Shown here piece by piece: positions 1,080-9,668 of a stretch of 64,000 bases of DNA. The notes under the pieces are model-generated. The model ran no database searches and was not told the DNA's origin. It was given only the letters and a program-made list of their open reading frames with translations. The translations under genes and the position numbers were made by a program. Position 1 is the stretch's first letter; every line of letters begins with the position of its first letter. Origin of the DNA: a virus (taxonomy: Duplodnaviria; Caudoviricetes); the IMG/VR virus record IMGVR_UViG_3300023178_000006, one strand, 5' to 3'.

Positions 1080-2609
1080 ATGAAGATTTTTGGCTTCGAA
1101 ATTAAGAGGCCTGAAGATGAGATAAAGAATGCTCCTATCTCATTTACAGAACCTCAAAATGATGATGGTGCGATTACCGTATCAGGTAACTCGCTAGGGG
1201 GCTTTTATAGTACTCTATTAGATATGGAAGGTTCAGCTAAGTCTGAATCCGAACTTATCACAAAGTATAGGAACATGGCCCTTCAGCCTGAGATTGCTCA
1301 GGCAGTTGATGATATAGTGAATGAAGCTATCTCGATTGAAATGGACGAAAGTGTCGTTAGCATAAGTTTAGGTGAAACTGATTTACCTGATAAAGTTAAA
1401 GACAAGATTGTAGAAGAATTTGATAACGTCGTATCTATGTTTGATATGTCAAACCAAGGATACGATATGTTCTATAAGTTTTATATCGACGGTCGATTGA
1501 ATTATCATATTATAATCGACCCCGATAACCTTAAAAGAGGTATTATAGAACTACGTTATTGTGACCCTCGAAAACTAAAACTAATTCGAGAGTTGGACAA
1601 GAAAAGTAAAGACAAGCACTCAGGTGCTCCAGTCAAAAAGATTAAGAATGAATACTATATGTATTCTGAAAATGGATTTGGAGCTACTAGTGCAAGCGGT
1701 TCAACTGTTGGTTTTAAAATTGCGAAGGACTCTATTGCTAGAGTAACTTCAGGATTGATGAATGAGAATAATAGTTTAGTATTATCTCACTTACATCCAG
1801 CAATTAAACCTTTAAATCAGTTGAGAATGCTAGAGGATGCTACAGTCATTTATACATTGACTAGAGCTCCTGAAAGAAGAATTTTTTATATTGATGTAGG
1901 TAATTTACCTAAGAATAAGGCGGAACAATATCTTAGAGATATGATGACTCGCCATAAGAATAAACTTCAATATAATTCGTCAACAGGTGAGATTACAGAT
2001 TCTCGTAAAATGTTGACAATGACTGAGGACTTTTGGTTCCCACGTCGTGGCGGTGAGCGTACCACAGAGGTTGATACATTAGCAGGTGGTAGTGCTCAAG
2101 GTTTAAGCAACGACGAAAACATGACGTATTTTCAACGTAAATTATATAAATCGTTGAAAGTACCTTTAACGCGTTTAGAGCCTGAAACAATGGCGAACTT
2201 TGGTAGAGTTTCAGAAATTACCAGAGACGAGTTAAAGTTTGGAAAGTTTATTAAACGTATTAGGTCACGTTTTTCTTGGATATTTAATATCGTATTAGAA
2301 AAACAACTAGTATTAAAGGGTATTCTTACTCCTGAAGAGTTTCAACAAATTCGAAACGATATTCGATATGAATTTGCAAAAGACAACTATTATGATGAGT
2401 TAAAACATGCAGAGATTCTTAAGGAAAGATTAGGAACCTTAAGAGATATTGAAGATTCGATTGGAAAATATTACTCGAAAGAATGGGTAATTAGAAACGT
2501 TCTTCAGATGAGTGAAGAGGAATTTAATGAAATGAATGACCAAATGGTCGCTGAAAAAGAAGCAGAACCTTCTGAAGACGGTGACGATATGGATTCAAAT
2601 CCTTTTTAA
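1080..2609 (+). CDS. gp20: Portal vertex protein
   Basis: FYIDGRL, LHPAIKPLNQLRMLEDA, RAPERRIFYIDVGNLPK and EDFWFPRRGG motifs. Confidence 0.97.
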   Translation: MKIFGFEIKRPEDEIKNAPISFTEPQNDDGAITVSGNSLGGFYSTLLDMEGSAKSESELITKYRNMALQPEIAQAVDDIVNEAISIEMDESVVSISLGETDLPDKVKDKIVEEFDNVVSMFDMSNQGYDMFYKFYIDGRLNYHIIIDPDNLKRGIIELRYCDPRKLKLIRELDKKSKDKHSGAPVKKIKNEYYMYSENGFGATSASGSTVGFKIAKDSIARVTSGLMNENNSLVLSHLHPAIKPLNQLRMLEDATVIYTLTRAPERRIFYIDVGNLPKNKAEQYLRDMMTRHKNKLQYNSSTGEITDSRKMLTMTEDFWFPRRGGERTTEVDTLAGGSAQGLSNDENMTYFQRKLYKSLKVPLTRLEPETMANFGRVSEITRDELKFGKFIKRIRSRFSWIFNIVLEKQLVLKGILTPEEFQQIRNDIRYEFAKDNYYDELKHAEILKERLGTLRDIEDSIGKYYSKEWVIRNVLQMSEEEFNEMNDQMVAEKEAEPSEDGDDMDSNPF

Positions 2610-2617
2610 TATAAATA
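2610..2617 (+). promoter_or_regulatory. T4-type late promoter TATAAATA
   Basis: Exact TATAAATA 35 nt upstream of ORF 2652. Confidence 0.7.
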
Positions 2618-2651
2618 AAATTAATATAGCAAAATAAATAGGGACTTAACA

Positions 2652-3563
2652 ATGAAAAACTTTAAAGATGTTCTCTCAGAAATCGCCCAACCAAAAAGTG
2701 GCGATGAGAAAAAGTTTAAAGACTTACATAAAATAGAATTAATCAAGCACCCAGTAGCACCTGATAATCAGTTTACTGGAGAGATTGATGGTGTGGAAAG
2801 GAAGGCAAGACCTGCTGACCAAGATGGCGATAAGAATTACGACCCACATCTCGATAAGAAAGATAAGCCATTTAAATTACCAAGAGATACAGGTGGTGGT
2901 GCATTAAGAAAAGAGAATACTGAAGTTTCTTTTAAAGATTTAATGAACAAAATCACATCAGAGGAAGACCTTCTTGAAAGTCCCCAAGAAGAAATTCCAA
3001 TGATGATGAAACAGCTTCATTATATTTGCTATGCTTGTGAAGACTTAATGGAATTCTTAGCAACTGACGAAATTGACCCAGAAGAATGGTGGCAAAATAA
3101 GTTGGCTCAAGTATTTGGTAACGTTAAATCATTACACGCTTATGCAAAAGGTAGTGAAAAAGCAGCTGAAGCAGAAAAAGACATTGACCTAGGTAGTGAT
3201 GATGTTGAAGAACAATATGAAAGTATTGATGAAGAAATAGCAGAACTTCTTCATGAAGAAAAATGTTCATGTTGTGGAAACGAAATTACTAAAGACGGAT
3301 GTGGATGCGATGAAGATTGCCCACACTGTGGTGGAAAGGGAAAAGTAGATGAAGCAGTCCAAGTTAAACCAATCAGGGCTGGGCAGTTGGTATTAGGTAA
3401 CAGAAAAAGAGTTTCTGTAAAACCTCAAGATGCAAAGTTATTAGACAAGATGTTTAAGACTTTAAGAGATAAAAAGAACAAGGAAGAAATGTACGAACTT
3501 TTAATGAGTAATGAAAGAGGGTACAACGAAATATTAGACTTTGCTAAAAAAGCAGGTATATAA
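2652..3563 (+). CDS. Probable head-internal/prohead-associated protein with Cys-rich segment
   Basis: Lies between gp20 and gp21; N-terminus MKNFKDVLSE; internal CSCCG...CGCDEDCPHCGG. Confidence 0.6.
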   Translation: MKNFKDVLSEIAQPKSGDEKKFKDLHKIELIKHPVAPDNQFTGEIDGVERKARPADQDGDKNYDPHLDKKDKPFKLPRDTGGGALRKENTEVSFKDLMNKITSEEDLLESPQEEIPMMMKQLHYICYACEDLMEFLATDEIDPEEWWQNKLAQVFGNVKSLHAYAKGSEKAAEAEKDIDLGSDDVEEQYESIDEEIAELLHEEKCSCCGNEITKDGCGCDEDCPHCGGKGKVDEAVQVKPIRAGQLVLGNRKRVSVKPQDAKLLDKMFKTLRDKKNKEEMYELLMSNERGYNEILDFAKKAGI

Positions 3564-3802
3564 TGGCATGGGTTTCAGTACCAGGTTCTAATGGAATTTG
3601 GGAATATGATAACGCAGCCACAGCATCAGATACTTATTCAGATGCTAATGGCACTACAACCGCAGGGGTAAGAACATATACTCCTCCGGGTGGAAATGCT
3701 CAATATATCTATGTAAAAGTTAGAAAAGTTGGGGAAACCGCAGAGCGGGGCGAATTATCAAAGAATTTCTACGATAATCGAAACGCAAACGGTATACCTT
3801 AA
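3563..3802 (+). CDS. Hypothetical protein in head gene cluster
   Basis: 79 aa, start overlaps the previous stop, upstream of gp21. Confidence 0.7.
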   Translation: MAWVSVPGSNGIWEYDNAATASDTYSDANGTTTAGVRTYTPPGGNAQYIYVKVRKVGETAERGELSKNFYDNRNANGIP

Positions 3803-3807
3803 ATGAA

Positions 3808-3815
3808 TATAAATA
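3808..3815 (+). promoter_or_regulatory. T4-type late promoter TATAAATA
   Basis: Exact motif upstream of gp21. Confidence 0.7.
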
Positions 3816-3841
3816 TTTAAAAGAATTATTAGGGTAGAAAC

Positions 3842-4525
3842 ATGAAATTAATTACTGAAGTTAACGAAACTTGCGAAGTATTAACCGAAGCTAAAGAGGA
3901 CGGAAAAAAGTCTTACTTTATCGAAGGTATCTTCATGCAAGGCGACATTAAAAATCGCAACGGAAGAATTTATCCATGCGACACTTTAGAGAATGAAATG
4001 AATCGTTATAACGAGCAATTCATTGAATCTAAAAGAGCGCTTGGTGAACTAGGACATCCTGACGGTCCTACGATTAACGGAGACCGTGTTTCTCATTTGA
4101 TAACTAATATGAAACGCGAAGGTAATGATTTTTACGGTAAAGCAAAAATCTTATCAACTCCAATGGGTGAGATTGTCAAAACTTTCATAGACGAGGGAGT
4201 TAAAATTGGCGTTTCAACAAGAGGTTTAGGCTCGGTAAAACAATTGAAGGATGGCGTTATGGAAGTTCAAAAAGATTTCCATTTAGCGACAGTGGACATT
4301 GTAACTGACCCTTCAGCTCCTAATGCTTTTGTAAATGGTATTATGGAGAATAGAGAGTATTACTACGACATCGCTTCTGCGTCTTGGAGAGCTCAGGAAG
4401 TAACTGAGGTAATCGAAGAGATTGTTGAAGAAGTTGAGAAAAAAATCAACCGAGTGGTACGTAAAATTGATGAAGAAACGGCAGCAAGAATGTTTAGTAC
4501 ATTCGTTCGTTCTTTGAGAAAATAA
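3842..4525 (+). CDS. gp21: Prohead protease
   Basis: IEGIFMQGDIKNRNGRIYP, ALGELGHP, GVSTRGLGS and DIVTDPSAPNAFV. Confidence 0.97.
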   Translation: MKLITEVNETCEVLTEAKEDGKKSYFIEGIFMQGDIKNRNGRIYPCDTLENEMNRYNEQFIESKRALGELGHPDGPTINGDRVSHLITNMKREGNDFYGKAKILSTPMGEIVKTFIDEGVKIGVSTRGLGSVKQLKDGVMEVQKDFHLATVDIVTDPSAPNAFVNGIMENREYYYDIASASWRAQEVTEVIEEIVEEVEKKINRVVRKIDEETAARMFSTFVRSLRK

Positions 4526-4592
4526 CTTTTTAATAAATAATTTGCAGTCAGATTTAATTTGTACTTAAACAATATTTAAAGGAGAAAACATT

Positions 4593-5585
4593 ATGGCAGA
4601 CGACAAAAATACATTCGTTGCTGACGACGGTATTTCAACTGTCCCACAACCGGCGAAGCCTGAGGGTGGTGAAGGTAATAGAAAGCCTAAAAAAGAAGAT
4701 AAGCCTAAAGAGGTAGGTGTAAAAACTCCTGGTCAAGAAAAAGCCGGTGAGAAAGTACCTACAGCTGAAGATGTCGAAGTAGAAGGAACTGAAACAATTG
4801 AAGAAACAGAAGAAACTGTGGAAGAAGTTGTAGTAGAATCTTCAATCGCTTCTATCATCGAAGGTGAAGAACTTTCTGAAGAATTCAAAAACAAAATTGA
4901 AGTTGTTTTTGAAGCAGCAGTTAACGAACAGGTCACAGCTCAAGTAGCAGCTATTAAAGAAGAGCTTGAAACTAAGCTCGAAAGCGAATTAGATGAATCA
5001 ATCGAAACTCGCATGAAAGACATCGTTGAAAACGTAGACAAGTATCTTGACTATGTAGTTGGCGAGTGGATGGAAGAGAACAAGATTGCAGTAGAAGCTG
5101 GCATTAAAGTAGAAATGGCAGAATCTCTCATGAATGGTCTTAAAGATTTATTCACTGAGCACAATGTATCTATCGACGAAGAAACTTTCGACGTAGTTGC
5201 AGAACTTGAAACACAAGTTTCTGATTTAGAAGAAAAATCAAATGCTTTAGTTAATGAGAATATCGAATTAGCTAAAACTATTTCTTCTATCAAAGCAGAA
5301 AAAGTTTTCGAAGAAATGACTGAAGGTCTTTCTGACAATCAGAAAGAAAGATTTAAAGTCCTTTCAGAAAAACTAGATGTTGAAGATTTAGAGTCTTATA
5401 CTGAAAATCTTCAAGTAATCAAGGAATCTTTCTTTAGTGAAGGCAAAGTTGCCACACCTAAAGTAGAAGAAGTCGAAGAAGACGAAATTATTCTAGAAGA
5501 ACAGGAAGTTAAAAAACCAGCTTCTGATTACGCTTCTGTAAATGCTCTTGTTGAAGCACTCGATGCGAGAAAAAAGAATAATTAA
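4593..5585 (+). CDS. gp22: Prohead core scaffolding protein
   Basis: Acidic coiled coil with LSEEFKNKIEVVFEAAV and VDKYLDYVVGEWMEEN; sits between gp21 and gp23. Confidence 0.93.
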   Translation: MADDKNTFVADDGISTVPQPAKPEGGEGNRKPKKEDKPKEVGVKTPGQEKAGEKVPTAEDVEVEGTETIEETEETVEEVVVESSIASIIEGEELSEEFKNKIEVVFEAAVNEQVTAQVAAIKEELETKLESELDESIETRMKDIVENVDKYLDYVVGEWMEENKIAVEAGIKVEMAESLMNGLKDLFTEHNVSIDEETFDVVAELETQVSDLEEKSNALVNENIELAKTISSIKAEKVFEEMTEGLSDNQKERFKVLSEKLDVEDLESYTENLQVIKESFFSEGKVATPKVEEVEEDEIILEEQEVKKPASDYASVNALVEALDARKKNN

Positions 5586-5602
5586 TTAAAAATTGGTTTT
5601 AT

Positions 5603-5610
5603 TATAAATA
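5603..5610 (+). promoter_or_regulatory. T4-type late promoter TATAAATA
   Basis: Exact motif upstream of gp23. Confidence 0.75.
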
Positions 5611-5643
5611 AAATTTACGTTAATTAAAAATAGGAGAGACATT

Positions 5644-6972
5644 ATGTCAAACTATCAACAACTCGTGGAAAAGTGGGAGCCAATTTTAGAGCACGACTCT
5701 TTTTCACCAATTAGCGATCAACATAGGAAAGCAGTAACAGCTACTATCCTAGAGAACACAGAAAGAGCACTTTCTGAAACAGGTGACTTGTCTGCAAACA
5801 TGACAAGCCTTCTTTCAGAAGCACCTACCAACGATGCTGGTACAGGTGGTTTCTCTGCAAGTGTATCTCCAGGAAATGCAGCAGCTGGTCCAACAGCTGG
5901 TTATGACCCTATCTTGATTTCATTAGTACGTAGAGCTATTCCTAACCTAATCGCTTACGATATCTGTGGTGTTCAGCCAATGACTGGCCCAACAGGTTTA
6001 ATCTTCGCGATGAGAGCACGTTACGGTTCTCAAGGTGGTGCGGAAGCTTTATATGCTGAAGCCGATACCGACTTTGGTGGTACTGGTACACACGCAAATA
6101 CTTTGCCAAACGCTAATACAACGCTTATTACAACTGGTACAGGTATGGACACAGCAGCGGCTGAAGCTTTAGGCGACGGTCAAGGTACAAACTTCGCAGA
6201 AATGGCATTCTCTATTGAGAAAGTTACTGTTGCTGCTAAGACACGTGCTTTAAAAGCTGAATACACAACTGAACTTGCTCAAGACTTAAGAGCAGTCCAC
6301 GGCCTAGACGCTGAAACAGAATTGGCTAACATTCTTCAATCTGAAATCTTAACAGAAATCAACCGTGAAGTTGTTAGAACAATCTACAAAACAGCTGAAG
6401 TAGGTGGTGACAATACTGCTGCTTCTGGAGTATTCGACTTAGACGTTGATGCAAACGGAAGATGGTCAGTTGAGAAGTTCAAAGGCTTAATGTTCCAAAT
6501 CGAACAAGAAGCTAACGCTATCGCAAAAGGAACTCGTAGAGGGAAAGGTAACATCGTTATTTGTTCTTCAGACGTAGCTTCTGCATTGCAAATGGCTGGT
6601 GTATTGGATTACGCTCCTGCCTTAAACTCTAACTCTTTAGAAGTTGATGACACAGGTAATACTTTTGCTGGTGTTCTTAACGGAAGATTCAGAGTATACG
6701 TTGACCCATTCGCAGGCGGCAACTACTTAGTAGTTGGTTATAAGGGTTCATCTGCATTTGATGCAGGTTTATTCTACTGCCCATACGTTCCTTTACAAAT
6801 GGTTCGTGCGGTTGGTGAGAACAGCTTCCAACCAAAAATTGGATTCAAGACTCGTTACGGAATGGTTGCAAACCCATTCGCTGAAGGTGACGTTTCTAAC
6901 CAAGGTTTGGGTGCTCTTACTCAAGACGTCAACAAGTACTACAGAAAAATTAGAGTCACAAACTTATTCTAA
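5644..6972 (+). CDS. gp23: Major capsid protein
   Basis: DPILISLVRR, GVQPMTGPTGLIFAMR, KTRALKAEYT and FQPKIGFKTRYG. Confidence 0.98.
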   Translation: MSNYQQLVEKWEPILEHDSFSPISDQHRKAVTATILENTERALSETGDLSANMTSLLSEAPTNDAGTGGFSASVSPGNAAAGPTAGYDPILISLVRRAIPNLIAYDICGVQPMTGPTGLIFAMRARYGSQGGAEALYAEADTDFGGTGTHANTLPNANTTLITTGTGMDTAAAEALGDGQGTNFAEMAFSIEKVTVAAKTRALKAEYTTELAQDLRAVHGLDAETELANILQSEILTEINREVVRTIYKTAEVGGDNTAASGVFDLDVDANGRWSVEKFKGLMFQIEQEANAIAKGTRRGKGNIVICSSDVASALQMAGVLDYAPALNSNSLEVDDTGNTFAGVLNGRFRVYVDPFAGGNYLVVGYKGSSAFDAGLFYCPYVPLQMVRAVGENSFQPKIGFKTRYGMVANPFAEGDVSNQGLGALTQDVNKYYRKIRVTNLF

Positions 6973-7020: not shown

Positions 7021-7050
7021 AAAGGGTCTCTTTCAGGGACCCTTTTTTTT
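7021..7050 (+). terminator. Rho-independent terminator after gp23, probably bidirectional
   Basis: AAAGGGTCTC-TTTCA-GGGACCCTTT hairpin followed by a T-run; convergent ORF ends here. Confidence 0.85.
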
Positions 7051-7282
7051 ACTTTGTTTTATGCTTATCGAAATACGAACGAATCAGGAAGATTCGTGTA
7101 TAAGCTACGACTGTCATTACACAAGTCACTAGCGTTCCCAGCGTGAGTGGGTCTGTGATTCCAAACTTATCAATAAAGATATACAATAAAGACAAGTTCA
7201 ATGGATAGTTGATAAGAAGACCGGTTGCAACTTGAGTGCCGGTTTCTTTATGAATTCGTTTTGTTCTTGTAGATAATTTCAT
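7049..7282 (-). CDS. Small membrane protein
   Basis: MKLSTR...QVATGLLINYPLNL...VVAYTRIFLIR with two hydrophobic segments; the track start at 7324 lies inside the tRNA, so the start was moved to 7282. Confidence 0.65.
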   Translation of the reverse strand: MKLSTRTKRIHKETGTQVATGLLINYPLNLSLLYIFIDKFGITDPLTLGTLVTCVMTVVAYTRIFLIRSYFDKHKTK

Positions 7283-7289
7283 AATAAAT

Positions 7290-7364
7290 TGGTAGCCCGT
7301 AGGAGAATCGAACTCCTGTTGCATGGATGAAAACCATGTGTCCTAACCACTAGACGAACGGGCC
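7290..7364 (-). tRNA. tRNA-Glu (anticodon TTC) with encoded CCA
   Basis: GGCCCGT/ACGGGCT acceptor stem, D-arm TAGTGGTTAGGA, anticodon arm CATGG-TTTTCAT-CCATG, T-loop GTTCGATTC, 3' ACCA. Confidence 0.95.
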
Positions 7365-7368
7365 GGAT

Positions 7369-7422
7369 AAAAAAACGGCAATCCTTCCATATACGCCTAT
7401 CAAAGGTATGTCAAGGATTGCC
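7369..7422 (-). terminator. Terminator-like hairpin between the large ncRNA and tRNA-Glu
   Basis: GGCAATCCTT...AAGGATTGCC 10-bp stem followed by 7 T on the - strand. Confidence 0.6.
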
Positions 7423-8140
7423 TAGGTATTGAATTTCAGTGTCACAATCGTCATTTGGTCTTACTGCCGGACTACCGGGCCCGTCGACTAAACGGGGATT
7501 TCAAACTACCTTAAAATCAAAATTTGGGGGGATGGATTTGTGTTAACGTAATTCGTTAAATAGTGTAGAATTGTTAATCGTAAATCCTGTCCCTACCCCG
7601 AGCTCGAAGCCCCTATTATTGAAACTGGTATAAAATCGCAGGTACGTCTCTCAGACTAACATGGTACTCGTTAATCCCAGTCTCGGTTGGTACCTAAGTA
7701 CCATCTCTGCCTAAAGGGAATAAAGCCTGGACCGCCGTCCTGTGTCCCTCGGTTTCCTTGCGGGGAATTTGAGGTTCTTCCTTTTCCATTGCGGACCTTC
7801 CGAGGGTCTAGTACTTCATCTTGTGTTTCCGCACCTCTTTGGTCTCTACAGTATCGAGCGTTTCTTCATACATGGAGACGCTTTCCCACCTGCTCTAATG
7901 ATTTTGTTGTCACCCGTATAATTACGTACTTTCCAGTACTGGCCTTCTCATTACTCTAACCTATCCTAGCTTGCAATCTTTGGACTCGGTTAGTTTCAGC
8001 TGCCAGTCGGGCGACTTTACTTCCTACACTTAAGACCTTCACGTTTGGTAAGAACGTCCATCAATCTAATTCTCTTCGCCGAATGTGACCACTATTTCAG
8101 ACACTTTCCCTTTCCGGCGGGGAGTATTCCGTCATTATGT
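7370..8140 (-). ncRNA. Candidate large structured ncRNA (ROOL/GOLLD-like)
   Basis: No credible ORF; GC elevated (93/180 counted in 7681-7860); several tetraloop hairpins; bounded by a sigma70 promoter and a terminator-like hairpin; adjacent to a tRNA. Confidence 0.7.
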
Positions 8141-8145
8141 TAGAT

Positions 8146-8205
8146 ATTATACCACAGCTTTTTGAAATTGTCAACTGTTTTTTGCAAAAAAGTTGCACTT
8201 TTTTT
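8146..8205 (-). promoter_or_regulatory. Sigma70-type promoter with upstream A6-GTTGCAC-T7 inverted repeat
   Basis: TTGACA (8174-8169), 17-nt spacer, TATAAT (8151-8146) preceded by TGG; inverted repeat at 8186-8205. Confidence 0.9.
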
Positions 8206-8212
8206 CAAGAGC

Positions 8213-8428
8213 TTATTTTGAGTTTACGAACTCATTCAGTTCAGAAGCTACAGAAATGATATCCTGTGCTGAAACTGAGGTTGTAGGTAATGATTTCTTA
8301 TCATCAGGGTGATTGTCGTTATGATTATACGTAGCGTCAATCTTCCTTTGTAAGTTATCGTATAGTATGGATTGAGCCATACTGAGTAGGTCGGCACGTA
8401 TCTCGTACCCAGATTTTCCGTTTGACAT
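8213..8428 (-). CDS. Hypothetical protein
   Basis: MSNGKSGYEIRADLLSMAQ, with GGAGGA ribosome-binding site. Confidence 0.8.
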   Translation of the reverse strand: MSNGKSGYEIRADLLSMAQSILYDNLQRKIDATYNHNDNHPDDKKSLPTTSVSAQDIISVASELNEFVNSK

Positions 8429-8465: not shown

Positions 8466-8774
8466 TTAAACTGTTAGGTATTCGTTAATTCTCCTAACAG
8501 TGTCTATTTCAGTTTGTGGATTATTCCACATCCTGTTTCTTGGACTTGGATGCGGTATCTTTAAATGAGACACCTCATTCTTATCCAACCAAGTAGAAGC
8601 GATATTTCCTAAAGCAATAACTTTATCATATCGTTTTACTAAGTTAATGTCATCGTATGAGCGGTTAGTCCAATCAAATTGCCTACCTACCCACTTGATA
8701 ACTCTGTTCTTTGTTGGTGATTTTTCTGGTGTTGTTTTACCAGGCGCTTCACCTACTATAATCAAAGATTCCAT
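8466..8774 (-). CDS. Minimal uracil-DNA glycosylase superfamily-like protein
   Basis: IIVGEAPG (motif A-like), VIALG and IPHPSPRN (motif B-like) within 102 aa. Confidence 0.65.
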   Translation of the reverse strand: MESLIIVGEAPGKTTPEKSPTKNRVIKWVGRQFDWTNRSYDDINLVKRYDKVIALGNIASTWLDKNEVSHLKIPHPSPRNRMWNNPQTEIDTVRRINEYLTV

Positions 8775-8938
8775 TATATACTTATACGTTCCATTGCAGT
8801 TCTATAACCATTTTTACGAACTCCACTTTCAAACATAATTGCTTCTTTCATGAATGTGAATACGTATTCCGCTTTGAGTACGTCATCAGCATCTTTAACG
8901 ATTACTTTAAATGCATTTTCTTTCTTATTCTTCTTCAT
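8774..8938 (-). CDS. Small hypothetical protein
   Basis: MKKNKKENAFKVIVKD; start moved to 8938 to remove a long overlap with the methyltransferase. Confidence 0.55.
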   Translation of the reverse strand: MKKNKKENAFKVIVKDADDVLKAEYVFTFMKEAIMFESGVRKNGYRTAMERISI

Positions 8939-9668
8939 TATCTTTCCTCGTGATGTATAACAACCAATAAGAATGACTTGGTCTAGCATTCTTGAGTAGA
9001 TGGTCTTGCCACATGAACAATCCATCAACCTCTCCAAACTGACTTCGTGTACGTACCTCGTGACGAGGTGAATCAACGAAGTGATTCAAAAAGTTATCTC
9101 TAAAATGAAAGAAGTCCTTTAAACCACCAGGTGTTGCTTGAGTATGAACTTCAACCACCATGTGCTTAACATTGTTGAGCATATAATCAAGGTTCTCTTC
9201 TGTAAATACATCGTATTCAGCACCTTCAATATCTGCTTTAAGGTAGTCAATATAATCTATATCATACCTTTCAACGAGTTGTTTAAAAGAAATCTTATCG
9301 ATATCTTCATTAGTTGTTTCATCATGAATAGTTTTGTATACACCATCAGCAGAACCAATAATTGCATTAATAGGAAATACAATAGGGTCTGGTTCGTTCA
9401 TCATAAACTCAGATACATTATCAATAGCGCATTTGAGTAGGTGTCTGTTACCTTCAACCATGTAAACTTTAGATGCACCACCATCACATGCTAGTGCTGA
9501 GAACATACCAACACAAGCACCAAGGTCAACTACTACATCACCAGGTTGTACTTTATACCACCATTCATATTCTTTTTCTTGAAAGAATTCAGTATAAAAA
9601 ACTGATATCATCTCAGATACCAGTCCGCCCATATTCATAACTTGATTGAGCGCCTTTTTTCTAATCAT
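8925..9668 (-). CDS. FkbM-family SAM-dependent methyltransferase
   Basis: GDVVVDLGACVGMFS and IDYLKADIEGAEY. Confidence 0.85.
   Translation of the reverse strand: MIRKKALNQVMNMGGLVSEMISVFYTEFFQEKEYEWWYKVQPGDVVVDLGACVGMFSALACDGGASKVYMVEGNRHLLKCAIDNVSEFMMNEPDPIVFPINAIIGSADGVYKTIHDETTNEDIDKISFKQLVERYDIDYIDYLKADIEGAEYDVFTEENLDYMLNNVKHMVVEVHTQATPGGLKDFFHFRDNFLNHFVDSPRHEVRTRSQFGEVDGLFMWQDHLLKNARPSHSYWLLYITRKDNEEE

Follow-up and report, generated by a model that had tools for sequence, protein, structure and literature searches.

To our knowledge, only a handful of bacterial and phage noncoding RNA (ncRNA) classes are longer than about 400 nt (OLE, GOLLD, ROOL and HEARO/omega-RNA). Two of these, ROOL and GOLLD, are phage-encoded RNAs of 600-800 nt which lie beside tRNAs and form RNA-only cages of unknown function; GOLLD env-38, from a marine metagenome, is located downstream of a tRNA. 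The sequence considered here is a stretch of 64,000 nucleotides (the window; IMG/VR record IMGVR_UViG_3300023178_000006), which is a portion of the genome of an uncultured, aquatic T4-like myophage. An interval on its minus strand, running from position 8174 down to 7369 and directly ahead of a tRNA-Glu gene, appears from comparison with homologous loci to be the gene for a structured ncRNA of a new, uncatalogued family. Unless stated otherwise, the features described below lie on the minus strand with the coordinates of the window, and homologous loci are designated by L numbers.

The conserved core of this RNA, of approximately 440-520 nt, comprises two domains (D1 and D2), each closed by a long-range helix, and the RNA occurs in a minimal form of ~440 nt and an extended form of ~770 nt. 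ROOL is likewise a large, multi-helix ncRNA of phages and prophages, often found near tRNA genes and not known to have a protein partner, and the core is in a similar size class. ROOL is, however, mainly found in Firmicutes, the rumen and prophages, whereas the RNA described here comes from aquatic myophages of the T4-like kind which are uncultured, and is distinguished by conserved blocks of its own and by a two-domain layout. ROOL itself forms a nanocage. GOLLD is also phage-encoded and tRNA-adjacent, with many members above 800 nt, conserved and variable parts, and some representatives from lake and marine metagenomes. The window transcript resembles it in that a core present throughout the family is joined by modules peculiar to the subtype and followed by a tRNA, but in GOLLD it is the 3' region which is conserved, whereas here the 5' core is conserved and the 3' modules are optional. 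OLE, an ornate RNA of about 600 nt with many conserved unpaired nucleotides, is encoded on the chromosomes of Firmicutes that are extremophiles and has OLE-associated proteins as partners, unlike the phage-borne RNA of the window. The tRNA cluster of T4 also encodes two stable RNAs, termed C and D (species 1 and 2), of ~120-140 nt and unknown function, which are co-transcribed with and processed from tRNA precursors. A module of 86 nt, located upstream of tRNA-Glu in the window, is similar to them in size and position, but the core is at least three times larger, and in 21 of the 30 representatives no tRNA accompanies it.

Comparison of the whole window to Rfam 15 (4,227 models) at the gathering score revealed a tRNA only, and ARAGORN found tRNA-Glu only. 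When positions 7200-8400 and two divergent homologues (L190 and L124) were searched at E<=10 with relaxed filters, nothing but chance miRNA and sRNA noise was obtained besides the tRNA. None of these searches gave a match to ROOL (RF03087), GOLLD (RF01998), OLE (RF01071), HEARO or raiA, to group I or II introns (RF00028, RF00029 and related models), RNase P types or small ribozymes, or to tmRNA, 6S RNA, SRP RNA, riboswitches or T-box leaders. Since no Rfam family was matched, the RNA looks like a new family. It has the features of the large ornate structured ncRNAs, being longer than 400 nt, non-coding, and provided with covarying helices and conserved unpaired blocks; no description of such an RNA was found in the literature. 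A large survey of candidate structured RNAs in IMG/VR, whose motifs average 67 nt, could contain at most fragments of it.

The interval had been called ROOL/GOLLD-like in a first-pass annotation, made from the letters of the window without database searches. As an analogy of setting this description is apt, the RNA being phage-borne, tRNA-adjacent, large, multi-helix and devoid of conserved open reading frames (ORFs), but membership of either family is excluded as far as the Rfam models can detect it. The resemblance of the segment 7954-7926 to ROOL, which had been put forward there, found no support from Rfam, and an exact 29-mer taken from it was not matched in IMG/VR. This RNA differs from ROOL and GOLLD in sequence and architecture and is like them in genomic setting only; the evidence favours the annotation's other suggestion, a new class.

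Transcription unit and homologues

A sigma70-type promoter was identified at 8146-8174, with a -35 box TTGACA (8174-8169), a 17-nt spacer ending in TG, and a -10 box TATAAT (8151-8146). It matches the consensus at 12 of 12 positions and carries the TG ahead of the -10 box; a promoter of this type suggests early transcription by the host RNA polymerase. All 30 non-redundant homologues possess it: the -35 box is TTGACA in 26 and TTGACT in 4, and the 17-nt spacer and TATAAT are common to all. The first helix (P1) begins 6-7 nt past the -10 box in every one of the 30, which is where transcription is expected to start. With its 5' end placed from this promoter geometry, the whole predicted transcript reaches from 8139 to the end of a U-run at 7369 (~770 nt). 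The complete unit (8174-7369) consists of the promoter, ~770 nt of RNA, and a long hairpin with seven U residues at its end, followed 4 nt past the U-run by tRNA-Glu (anticodon UUC; 7290-7364), the sole tRNA of the window. The RNA strand is purine-rich (A 32%, G 25%), and the GC content of 7681-7860 is 51.7%, compared to 36.0% over the whole window.

A/T-rich tracts precede the promoter in the homologues as well. In the window, a short hairpin with an A-run and a U-run (AAAAAAAGUGCAACUUUUUU, 8180-8205) separates the -35 box from an upstream 71-aa ORF. This hairpin probably terminates transcription of that upstream gene, or acts on the RNA promoter as an UP-like element rich in A+T, or does both.

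No conserved ORF was found. The interval of the window holds short, scattered ORFs only, with open frames of up to 94 codons on the antisense strand, and the longest open frame in 29 homologues varied in strand, frame and length (52-112 codons). Protein-coding potential was rejected on these grounds.

Homologues were collected by fetching IMG/VR loci through their capsid protein, from which four homologous intergenic regions were obtained; their alignment revealed a common promoter and several conserved blocks. The set was widened by block-based pattern scans of IMG/VR and metagenome contigs, each followed by nhmmer, and now comprises 72 loci from IMG/VR and metagenomes, 30 of them distinct at 97% identity. 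As the scans depended on sequence patterns, the figure of 72 should be read as a minimum.

Three subtypes (the window and two others) were compared by blastn in "distant" mode with 50,697 records of sequenced phages, none of which was matched. The conserved 5'-end pattern was matched six times in 185,579 GTDB genomes, and nhmmer found no homologue among these matches. The covariance model of D2 (R1, see below) had no match in the whole genomes of phages Melnitz and HTVC008M, nor in 58 IMG/VR loci fetched with gp23 together with the gp23 regions of two cultured phages. These negatives in related phages indicate that the RNA is patchy even within this phage group; judging by the sequences searched, the family is so far known only from some of the T4-like phages that are uncultured.

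The gene-free interval, its GC content of about 52% at 7681-7860, the consensus promoter, the terminal hairpin with its U-run (7369-7422) and the adjacent tRNA-Glu had each been recorded in the first-pass annotation, and these observations were borne out. Its central proposal, a large, structured, promoter-driven ncRNA in a T4-like phage, gained 72 homologous loci and strong covariation. It had named conservation of a reading frame, or a lack of covariation, among the signs which would speak against an RNA gene; the frame is not conserved and the covariation is strong. The Rfam comparison which it had proposed gave no match to ROOL, GOLLD or group I introns.

Secondary structure of the core

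Comparison of the homologues showed extensive compensatory variation in at least 15 of the predicted helices. Taking D1 and D2 jointly, 54 of 78 pairs were compensatory, while pairing fell to 24-45% when the partners were slid. G-U pairs were tolerated on the RNA strand only, which, together with the compensatory changes, points to selection on RNA. Insertions and deletions were not multiples of three and were located in hairpin tips. Conserved unpaired blocks included a 13-nt loop of helix P9, the sequence AGCUYGAGGAAG, UAGGUGGAC and UUAACGAGUA. When RNAalifold was applied to plain MAFFT alignments of all subtypes little was recovered, because the stems were mis-registered.

The consensus structure of D2 was derived with RNAalifold from 13 short-type sequences, giving 44 pairs, and was converted into model R1 with the window subtype left out. 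R1 recovered 70 copies, and its match to the window (7623-7891) scored 76.5 bits with E=1e-16, a value which, like all covariance-model E-values given here, is rough. On 37 distinct rows 91.0% of cells could pair (72.6% in shuffles), and 33 of the 44 pairs had changed on both sides. The covariation score was 0.454, compared to 0.166 for shuffled alignments, none of 500 of which reached it; sliding the 3' partners by 1-3 columns lowered pairing to 24-43% and the score to <=0.087. Model R2, for D1, was built from other subtypes, the window subtype again being left out. It recovered 73 copies, of which that in the window spans 7893-8144 (46.9 bits, E=5e-10). Here 90.1% of cells could pair, as against 75.6% in shuffles, and the covariation score of 0.341 was reached by none of 500 shuffled alignments (0.114) and dropped to <=0.074 with the partners slid.

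D1 (8138-7893) is closed by P1, which in the window pairs 8137-8132 with 7901-7896. Most homologues have AUAUUGA/UCAAUAU in this helix; the window has UAAUGA/UCAUUA instead, and L123 has ACAUUG/CAAUGU, the differences being compensatory swaps. Within it lie P2, P3, P4 and a three-way element formed by P5, P6 and P7. The loop of P3 has a conserved AGAGA-type motif, which is perhaps reminiscent of the T-loop platforms that bind the tRNA elbow. The hairpin loop of P4, YUUAYCAA, is nearly invariant. P5 and P7 were assessed with scripted stem tables. P5 was found as CCCG/CGGG (16), CCCA/UGGG (9), CCCU/AGGG (3) and ACCA/UGGU (2), and P6 as CGGC/GCCG, CCGC/GCGG and UGGU/AUCA with a conserved loop AGCUYGAGGAAG, which in the window type is replaced by an inserted, covarying hairpin. 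P7 (7926-7939) is the hairpin GUACU-GGAA-AGUAC with a loop of the GNRA type; at least 10 stem sequences were counted across the 30 homologues, always capped by GGAA(N).

D2 (7623-7893) is closed by a long, irregular helix, P8, in which 7893-7888 pairs with 7643-7638 in the window. Variants of P8 are GCAGGU/ACCUGC (window), GUGGGUA/UACCUAC (L001), GCGGGU/ACCCGC (L128) and GGUGGUAC/GUACCACC (L279); the short types have GACU..GGC/GCC..AGUC, or GAC/GUC in L270. The domain holds P9 to P13. The P9 loop, GWAGAAACRCUMG, has an invariant length of 13 nt, while P10 is a variable insertion and P11 is surrounded by the pairing AGAU/AUCU (P11x). P13 is formed by 7703-7688. A further helix of D2, outside the model structure and found independently, also covaries (UCC/GGA, UAU/GUA, CUC/GAG). 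P12 is a hairpin with a GGCR loop, whose stem occurs as GGAC/GUCC, GAAC/GUUC, GCUC/GAGC and UGAC/GUCA. A group-I-like reading, in which ACAGGACGGCAGUCC would be the P7 of an intron, was tried and rejected, the segment being a local hairpin which covaries through these same four pairs.

The hairpins listed in the first-pass annotation were found in covarying helices. GTACT-GGAA-AGTAC (7939-7926) is P7, GGTAC-TTAG-GTACC (7702-7689) falls in P13, and both CC-GCAA-GG (within 7768-7753) and CCCGT..ACGGG (7496-7480) lie inside such helices. The long-range helix, closing about 580 nt, which it had drawn between GGUCUUA (8037-8031) and UAAGACC (7463-7457) fared differently. Perfect 7-nt complements in the transcript numbered 17, compared to 16.4 +/- 5.4 in shuffles, and the pairing was lost in L001 (GGCTCAA and AAAGAAC) and L084 (GGCTCAA and TAAGACC). 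As the homologues do not keep the two segments complementary, this helix was rejected; GGUCUUA sits in the stem of P4, and UAAGACC in the loop of a 3' hairpin (HP-D).

A candidate kissing contact between the two domains was noticed, the P4 loop CUUAU (~8049-8041) being complementary to the P14 loop AUAAG (~7660-7656). In the window type the corresponding loops read CUUAC and GUUAG, with one compensatory swap and one mismatch. The loops are of low complexity, pyrimidine- or purine-rich, and from their complementarity such a contact is possible but weakly indicated.

Optional 3' modules

Downstream of D2 the homologues differ. Minimal members (L124, L276 and L123) end directly after D2 with a canonical terminator of their own, and at least in L124 and L276 the terminator is followed by a new promoter serving unrelated genes, for example HSP20. 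Most of the non-minimal members gain a hairpin (HP-A), and the window type has in addition a four-way junction and a terminal hairpin (HP-E) with its U7. RNAalifold applied to the 3' extension of 10 window-type sequences gave 60 pairs, 22 of them compensatory.

HP-A (7515-7603), behind which lies a U-rich tract, is a long hairpin whose outer stem covaries and whose apical region (GAUUAACAAUUC..GAAUU.CGUUAAC) is conserved. In the L190 type AAUUC/GAAUU is replaced by AAAGA/UCUUU, and UUAAC/GUUAA by AUCUC/GAGAU. The equivalent of HP-A in homologues which carry hemC is the last element ahead of the hemC start codon.

The four-way-junction module (7425-7510, 86 nt) is closed by the helix GGUAGUUUGAA/UUCAAUACC and contains three hairpins, HP-B (7496-7480), HP-C (7478-7467) and HP-D (7466-7437); the stem of HP-D has the variants CAGU..ACUG and CUCA..UGAG, and compensatory changes were observed in all four helices. 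The module is of the size of a tRNA and was recognised neither by ARAGORN nor by the Rfam tRNA model. Possibly it represents a small stable RNA in its own right, or else a tRNA-like module that has degenerated.

The transcript is predicted to end with HP-E, a terminator-like hairpin of 46 nt (7422-7377), and seven U residues (7375-7369). Its outer stem covaries in the 10 sequences through GC/AU/UA/CG swaps, while about 27 nt of its apex (CAUACCUUUGAUAGGCGUAUAUGGAAG) are nearly invariant. As the apex is almost unchanged where the outer stem varies freely, the loop would have a function, other than termination, that depends on its sequence. A tRNA promoter within this loop (TTGACA..TATATG) was considered and rejected: the -10 box is without the invariant final T, the -35 box is not conserved (TTTTCA, TTAACA, TTGTCA), and the promoter scan did not return it.

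Genomic setting and possible function

The gene downstream of the RNA varies. Among the 30 representatives, tRNA-Glu(UUC) was found in 9, hemC in 10, both in 1 (L090) and neither in 12. The product of hemC is a phage porphobilinogen deaminase (PF01379, E=3e-58, plus PF03900), encoded for example at L190:10889-11716 (-) and L090:1426-2268 (-) and absent from the window. The most constant protein neighbour is a small membrane protein, relatives of which are encoded downstream of the RNA, the tRNA or hemC in 48 of the 72 loci; in the window it has 77 aa (7049-7282) and shows weak similarity, below the Pfam cutoff, to DUF7220/phrog_4276. Genes on the 5' side also differ among loci, and include the 71-aa ORF (7 loci), a TET-associated glycosyltransferase and others.

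In the window, the RNA interval is located between the capsid gene, which is convergent with it, and a block of genes on the minus strand. The genes for portal, scaffold and major head proteins lie on the plus strand (1080-6972). The nearest cultured relatives by capsid, with an identity of only 62-65%, are Sinorhizobium phages phiN3/phiM12, Stenotrophomonas phage DLP_6, OM43 phage Melnitz, Pelagibacter phage HTVC008M and cyanomyophages, whose hosts are rhizobia, Stenotrophomonas, OM43, SAR11 and cyanobacteria; no nucleotide similarity to sequenced phages was found outside the capsid gene. Just upstream of the RNA are a fragment-like ORF of the UDG superfamily (8466-8774, 102 aa) and an FkbM-type methyltransferase (8925-9668), both on the minus strand, and in L001 the genes upstream of the RNA include the TET-associated glycosyltransferase (L001:9335-10282, minus strand). 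These genes hint that the phages hypermodify their own DNA.

In the homologous loci the RNA is mostly near the capsid gene, with a different orientation to it in L027 and L123. There (L027:2385-2843 and L123:2100-3102, both plus strand) the RNA is on the capsid-gene strand, in L123 along with the upstream 71-aa ORF. Given that it is convergent with the capsid gene in the window, the module has been inverted or moved within a hyperplastic region.

The reading preferred here, to which a probability of roughly 60% is given, is that of a new RNA family which is transcribed by the host polymerase, ends by termination or is read through, and acts in trans through its core. Host RNA polymerase would transcribe the RNA strongly and early in infection, and most transcripts would end at HP-A or HP-E. 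Read-through would supply a cargo that differs among the phages: in the window it is tRNA-Glu, which RNase P would set free, and elsewhere it is hemC or a small membrane protein. The RNA gene would thereby also lend its promoter to the cargo genes. The core would act in trans by way of its tertiary fold, as a scaffold, a decoy or an RNA-only assembly by analogy to ROOL and GOLLD, and would not be a sensor for one particular downstream gene. The minimal forms with their own terminator, and the variety of the downstream genes, support a stand-alone gene. Glu-tRNA is the precursor of tetrapyrroles, including the substrate of HemC, in the C5 pathway, so that the association of a lone tRNA-Glu with hemC may have a function and need not be accidental, and the recurrence of these two neighbours would make the axis of tRNA-Glu, translation and tetrapyrroles the first candidate target. 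A more far-reaching proposal, offered tentatively, is that the RNA stands beside ROOL and GOLLD, and independent of both, as a third class of large phage RNA found next to tRNAs. Its core would fold, and perhaps oligomerise, by itself, and the RNA would act early on host tRNA-Glu and translation or on the tetrapyrrole axis.

Several points weigh against the preferred reading. The transcript ends were placed from sequence only. The minimum free energy z-score of the window transcript taken singly is an unremarkable -1.7, and the case for structure rests on the comparison of homologues; the alignments from which pairs were counted were fitted to the model structures and are hence biased towards them, and the sequences share ancestry, by which the shuffle control overstates significance. 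Two of the D1 helices proposed by RNAalifold (nos. 5 and 7) are probably wrong, as they compete with P5 and P7. P2 is invariant and competes with an overlapping CACC/GGUG pairing, which shows one compensatory variant but is itself weakly supported. Finally, in the 10 of 30 representatives with hemC this gene starts ~15 nt past the last hairpin and has no promoter of its own, so that it must be transcribed by read-through. In those loci the RNA is physically a 5' leader, which is also compatible with a cis-regulatory role.

The main alternative is that of a giant cis-acting leader or attenuator, similar to a riboswitch or T-box but much larger. In this reading the core would respond to a protein, to the charging of tRNA-Glu or to an intermediate of the tetrapyrrole pathway, and would thereby control whether transcription continues past HP-A or HP-E into the genes for tRNA-Glu, HemC or the membrane protein. 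It is favoured by hemC, which stands directly behind the RNA in 26 of the 72 loci and, in the phage loci examined, was seen only there; by the last hairpin and U-tract, between which and the hemC start there is no promoter; and by L090, where the order is RNA, tRNA-Glu, hemC and the tRNA provides the precursor of the HemC substrate. More tentatively, the AGAGA-type motif of the P3 loop might fit as well. This alternative is weakened by the 12 of 30 representatives with neither gene downstream, and by the minimal forms, which close with a strong terminator before the new promoter of the unrelated genes in L124 and L276. A sensing domain of at least 440 nt would be without precedent, riboswitch and T-box models of Rfam failed to match, and no alternative terminator/antiterminator pairing was found in a search which was not exhaustive. 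Such a leader is considered unlikely.

A ribonucleoprotein subunit, guide or decoy is likewise improbable. It could be an anti-defence decoy, a sponge for ribosomal or tRNA-binding proteins, or a scaffold for phage enzymes; the many conserved unpaired blocks could bind protein, the 71-aa ORF upstream and the DUF7220-like protein downstream are recurrent neighbours, and OLE and HEARO are large RNAs which proved to work with proteins. No protein gene is invariably linked to the RNA, however, the immediate upstream gene varies, and no gene of the nuclease, reverse transcriptase or transposase type is nearby.

The two domains with long-range closing helices, the GNRA loops, the highly conserved junction nucleotides and the adjacent tRNA could also be those of a ribozyme or its relic, whether a group I or II intron that has diverged or degenerated, an RNA akin to that of RNase P, or a self-processing RNA linked to tRNA maturation. 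The strings ACAGAAC, AAGUCCG and GGCAGC may resemble RNase P or intron motifs. Their order is nevertheless unlike that of RNase P, and AAGUCCG pairs locally in P14/P8; the element has a promoter of its own at the very 5' end and lies within neither an ORF nor a tRNA, and the intron, RNase P, tmRNA and small-ribozyme models of Rfam were silent at E<=10 on three subtypes. This origin is regarded as quite improbable. A very divergent ROOL or GOLLD, missed by the Rfam models, would share the setting (phage, tRNA-adjacent, 500-800 nt, highly structured, with GOLLD env-38 also tRNA-linked), but it is very improbable given the lack of any match at E<=10 with relaxed filters for the window and the two divergent homologues, and given conserved blocks which were unmatched to any family. 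A protein-coding remnant or a DNA element (origin, packaging or recombination site), to which the antisense open frames of the window might be ascribed, can practically be dismissed in view of the unconserved frames, the indels out of threes in hairpin tips, the compensatory changes with G-U pairs on one strand, and the consensus promoter fixed at the 5' edge.

The known large RNA classes have each revealed unexpected biology or stay a puzzle, and a further class offers an independent handle on their function. The compact two-domain core, the strong and invariant promoter, the minimal and extended forms and the recurrent neighbours are useful in this respect, and the sequence set and structure model suffice for in vitro transcription, chemical probing and cryo-electron microscopy. 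The family sits in aquatic T4-like phages, in which the biology of phage RNA is almost unexplored. If it does represent a third class of tRNA-adjacent phage RNA, it would be a new RNA-based device for phage takeover, and not a passive leader, in abundant aquatic bacteria.

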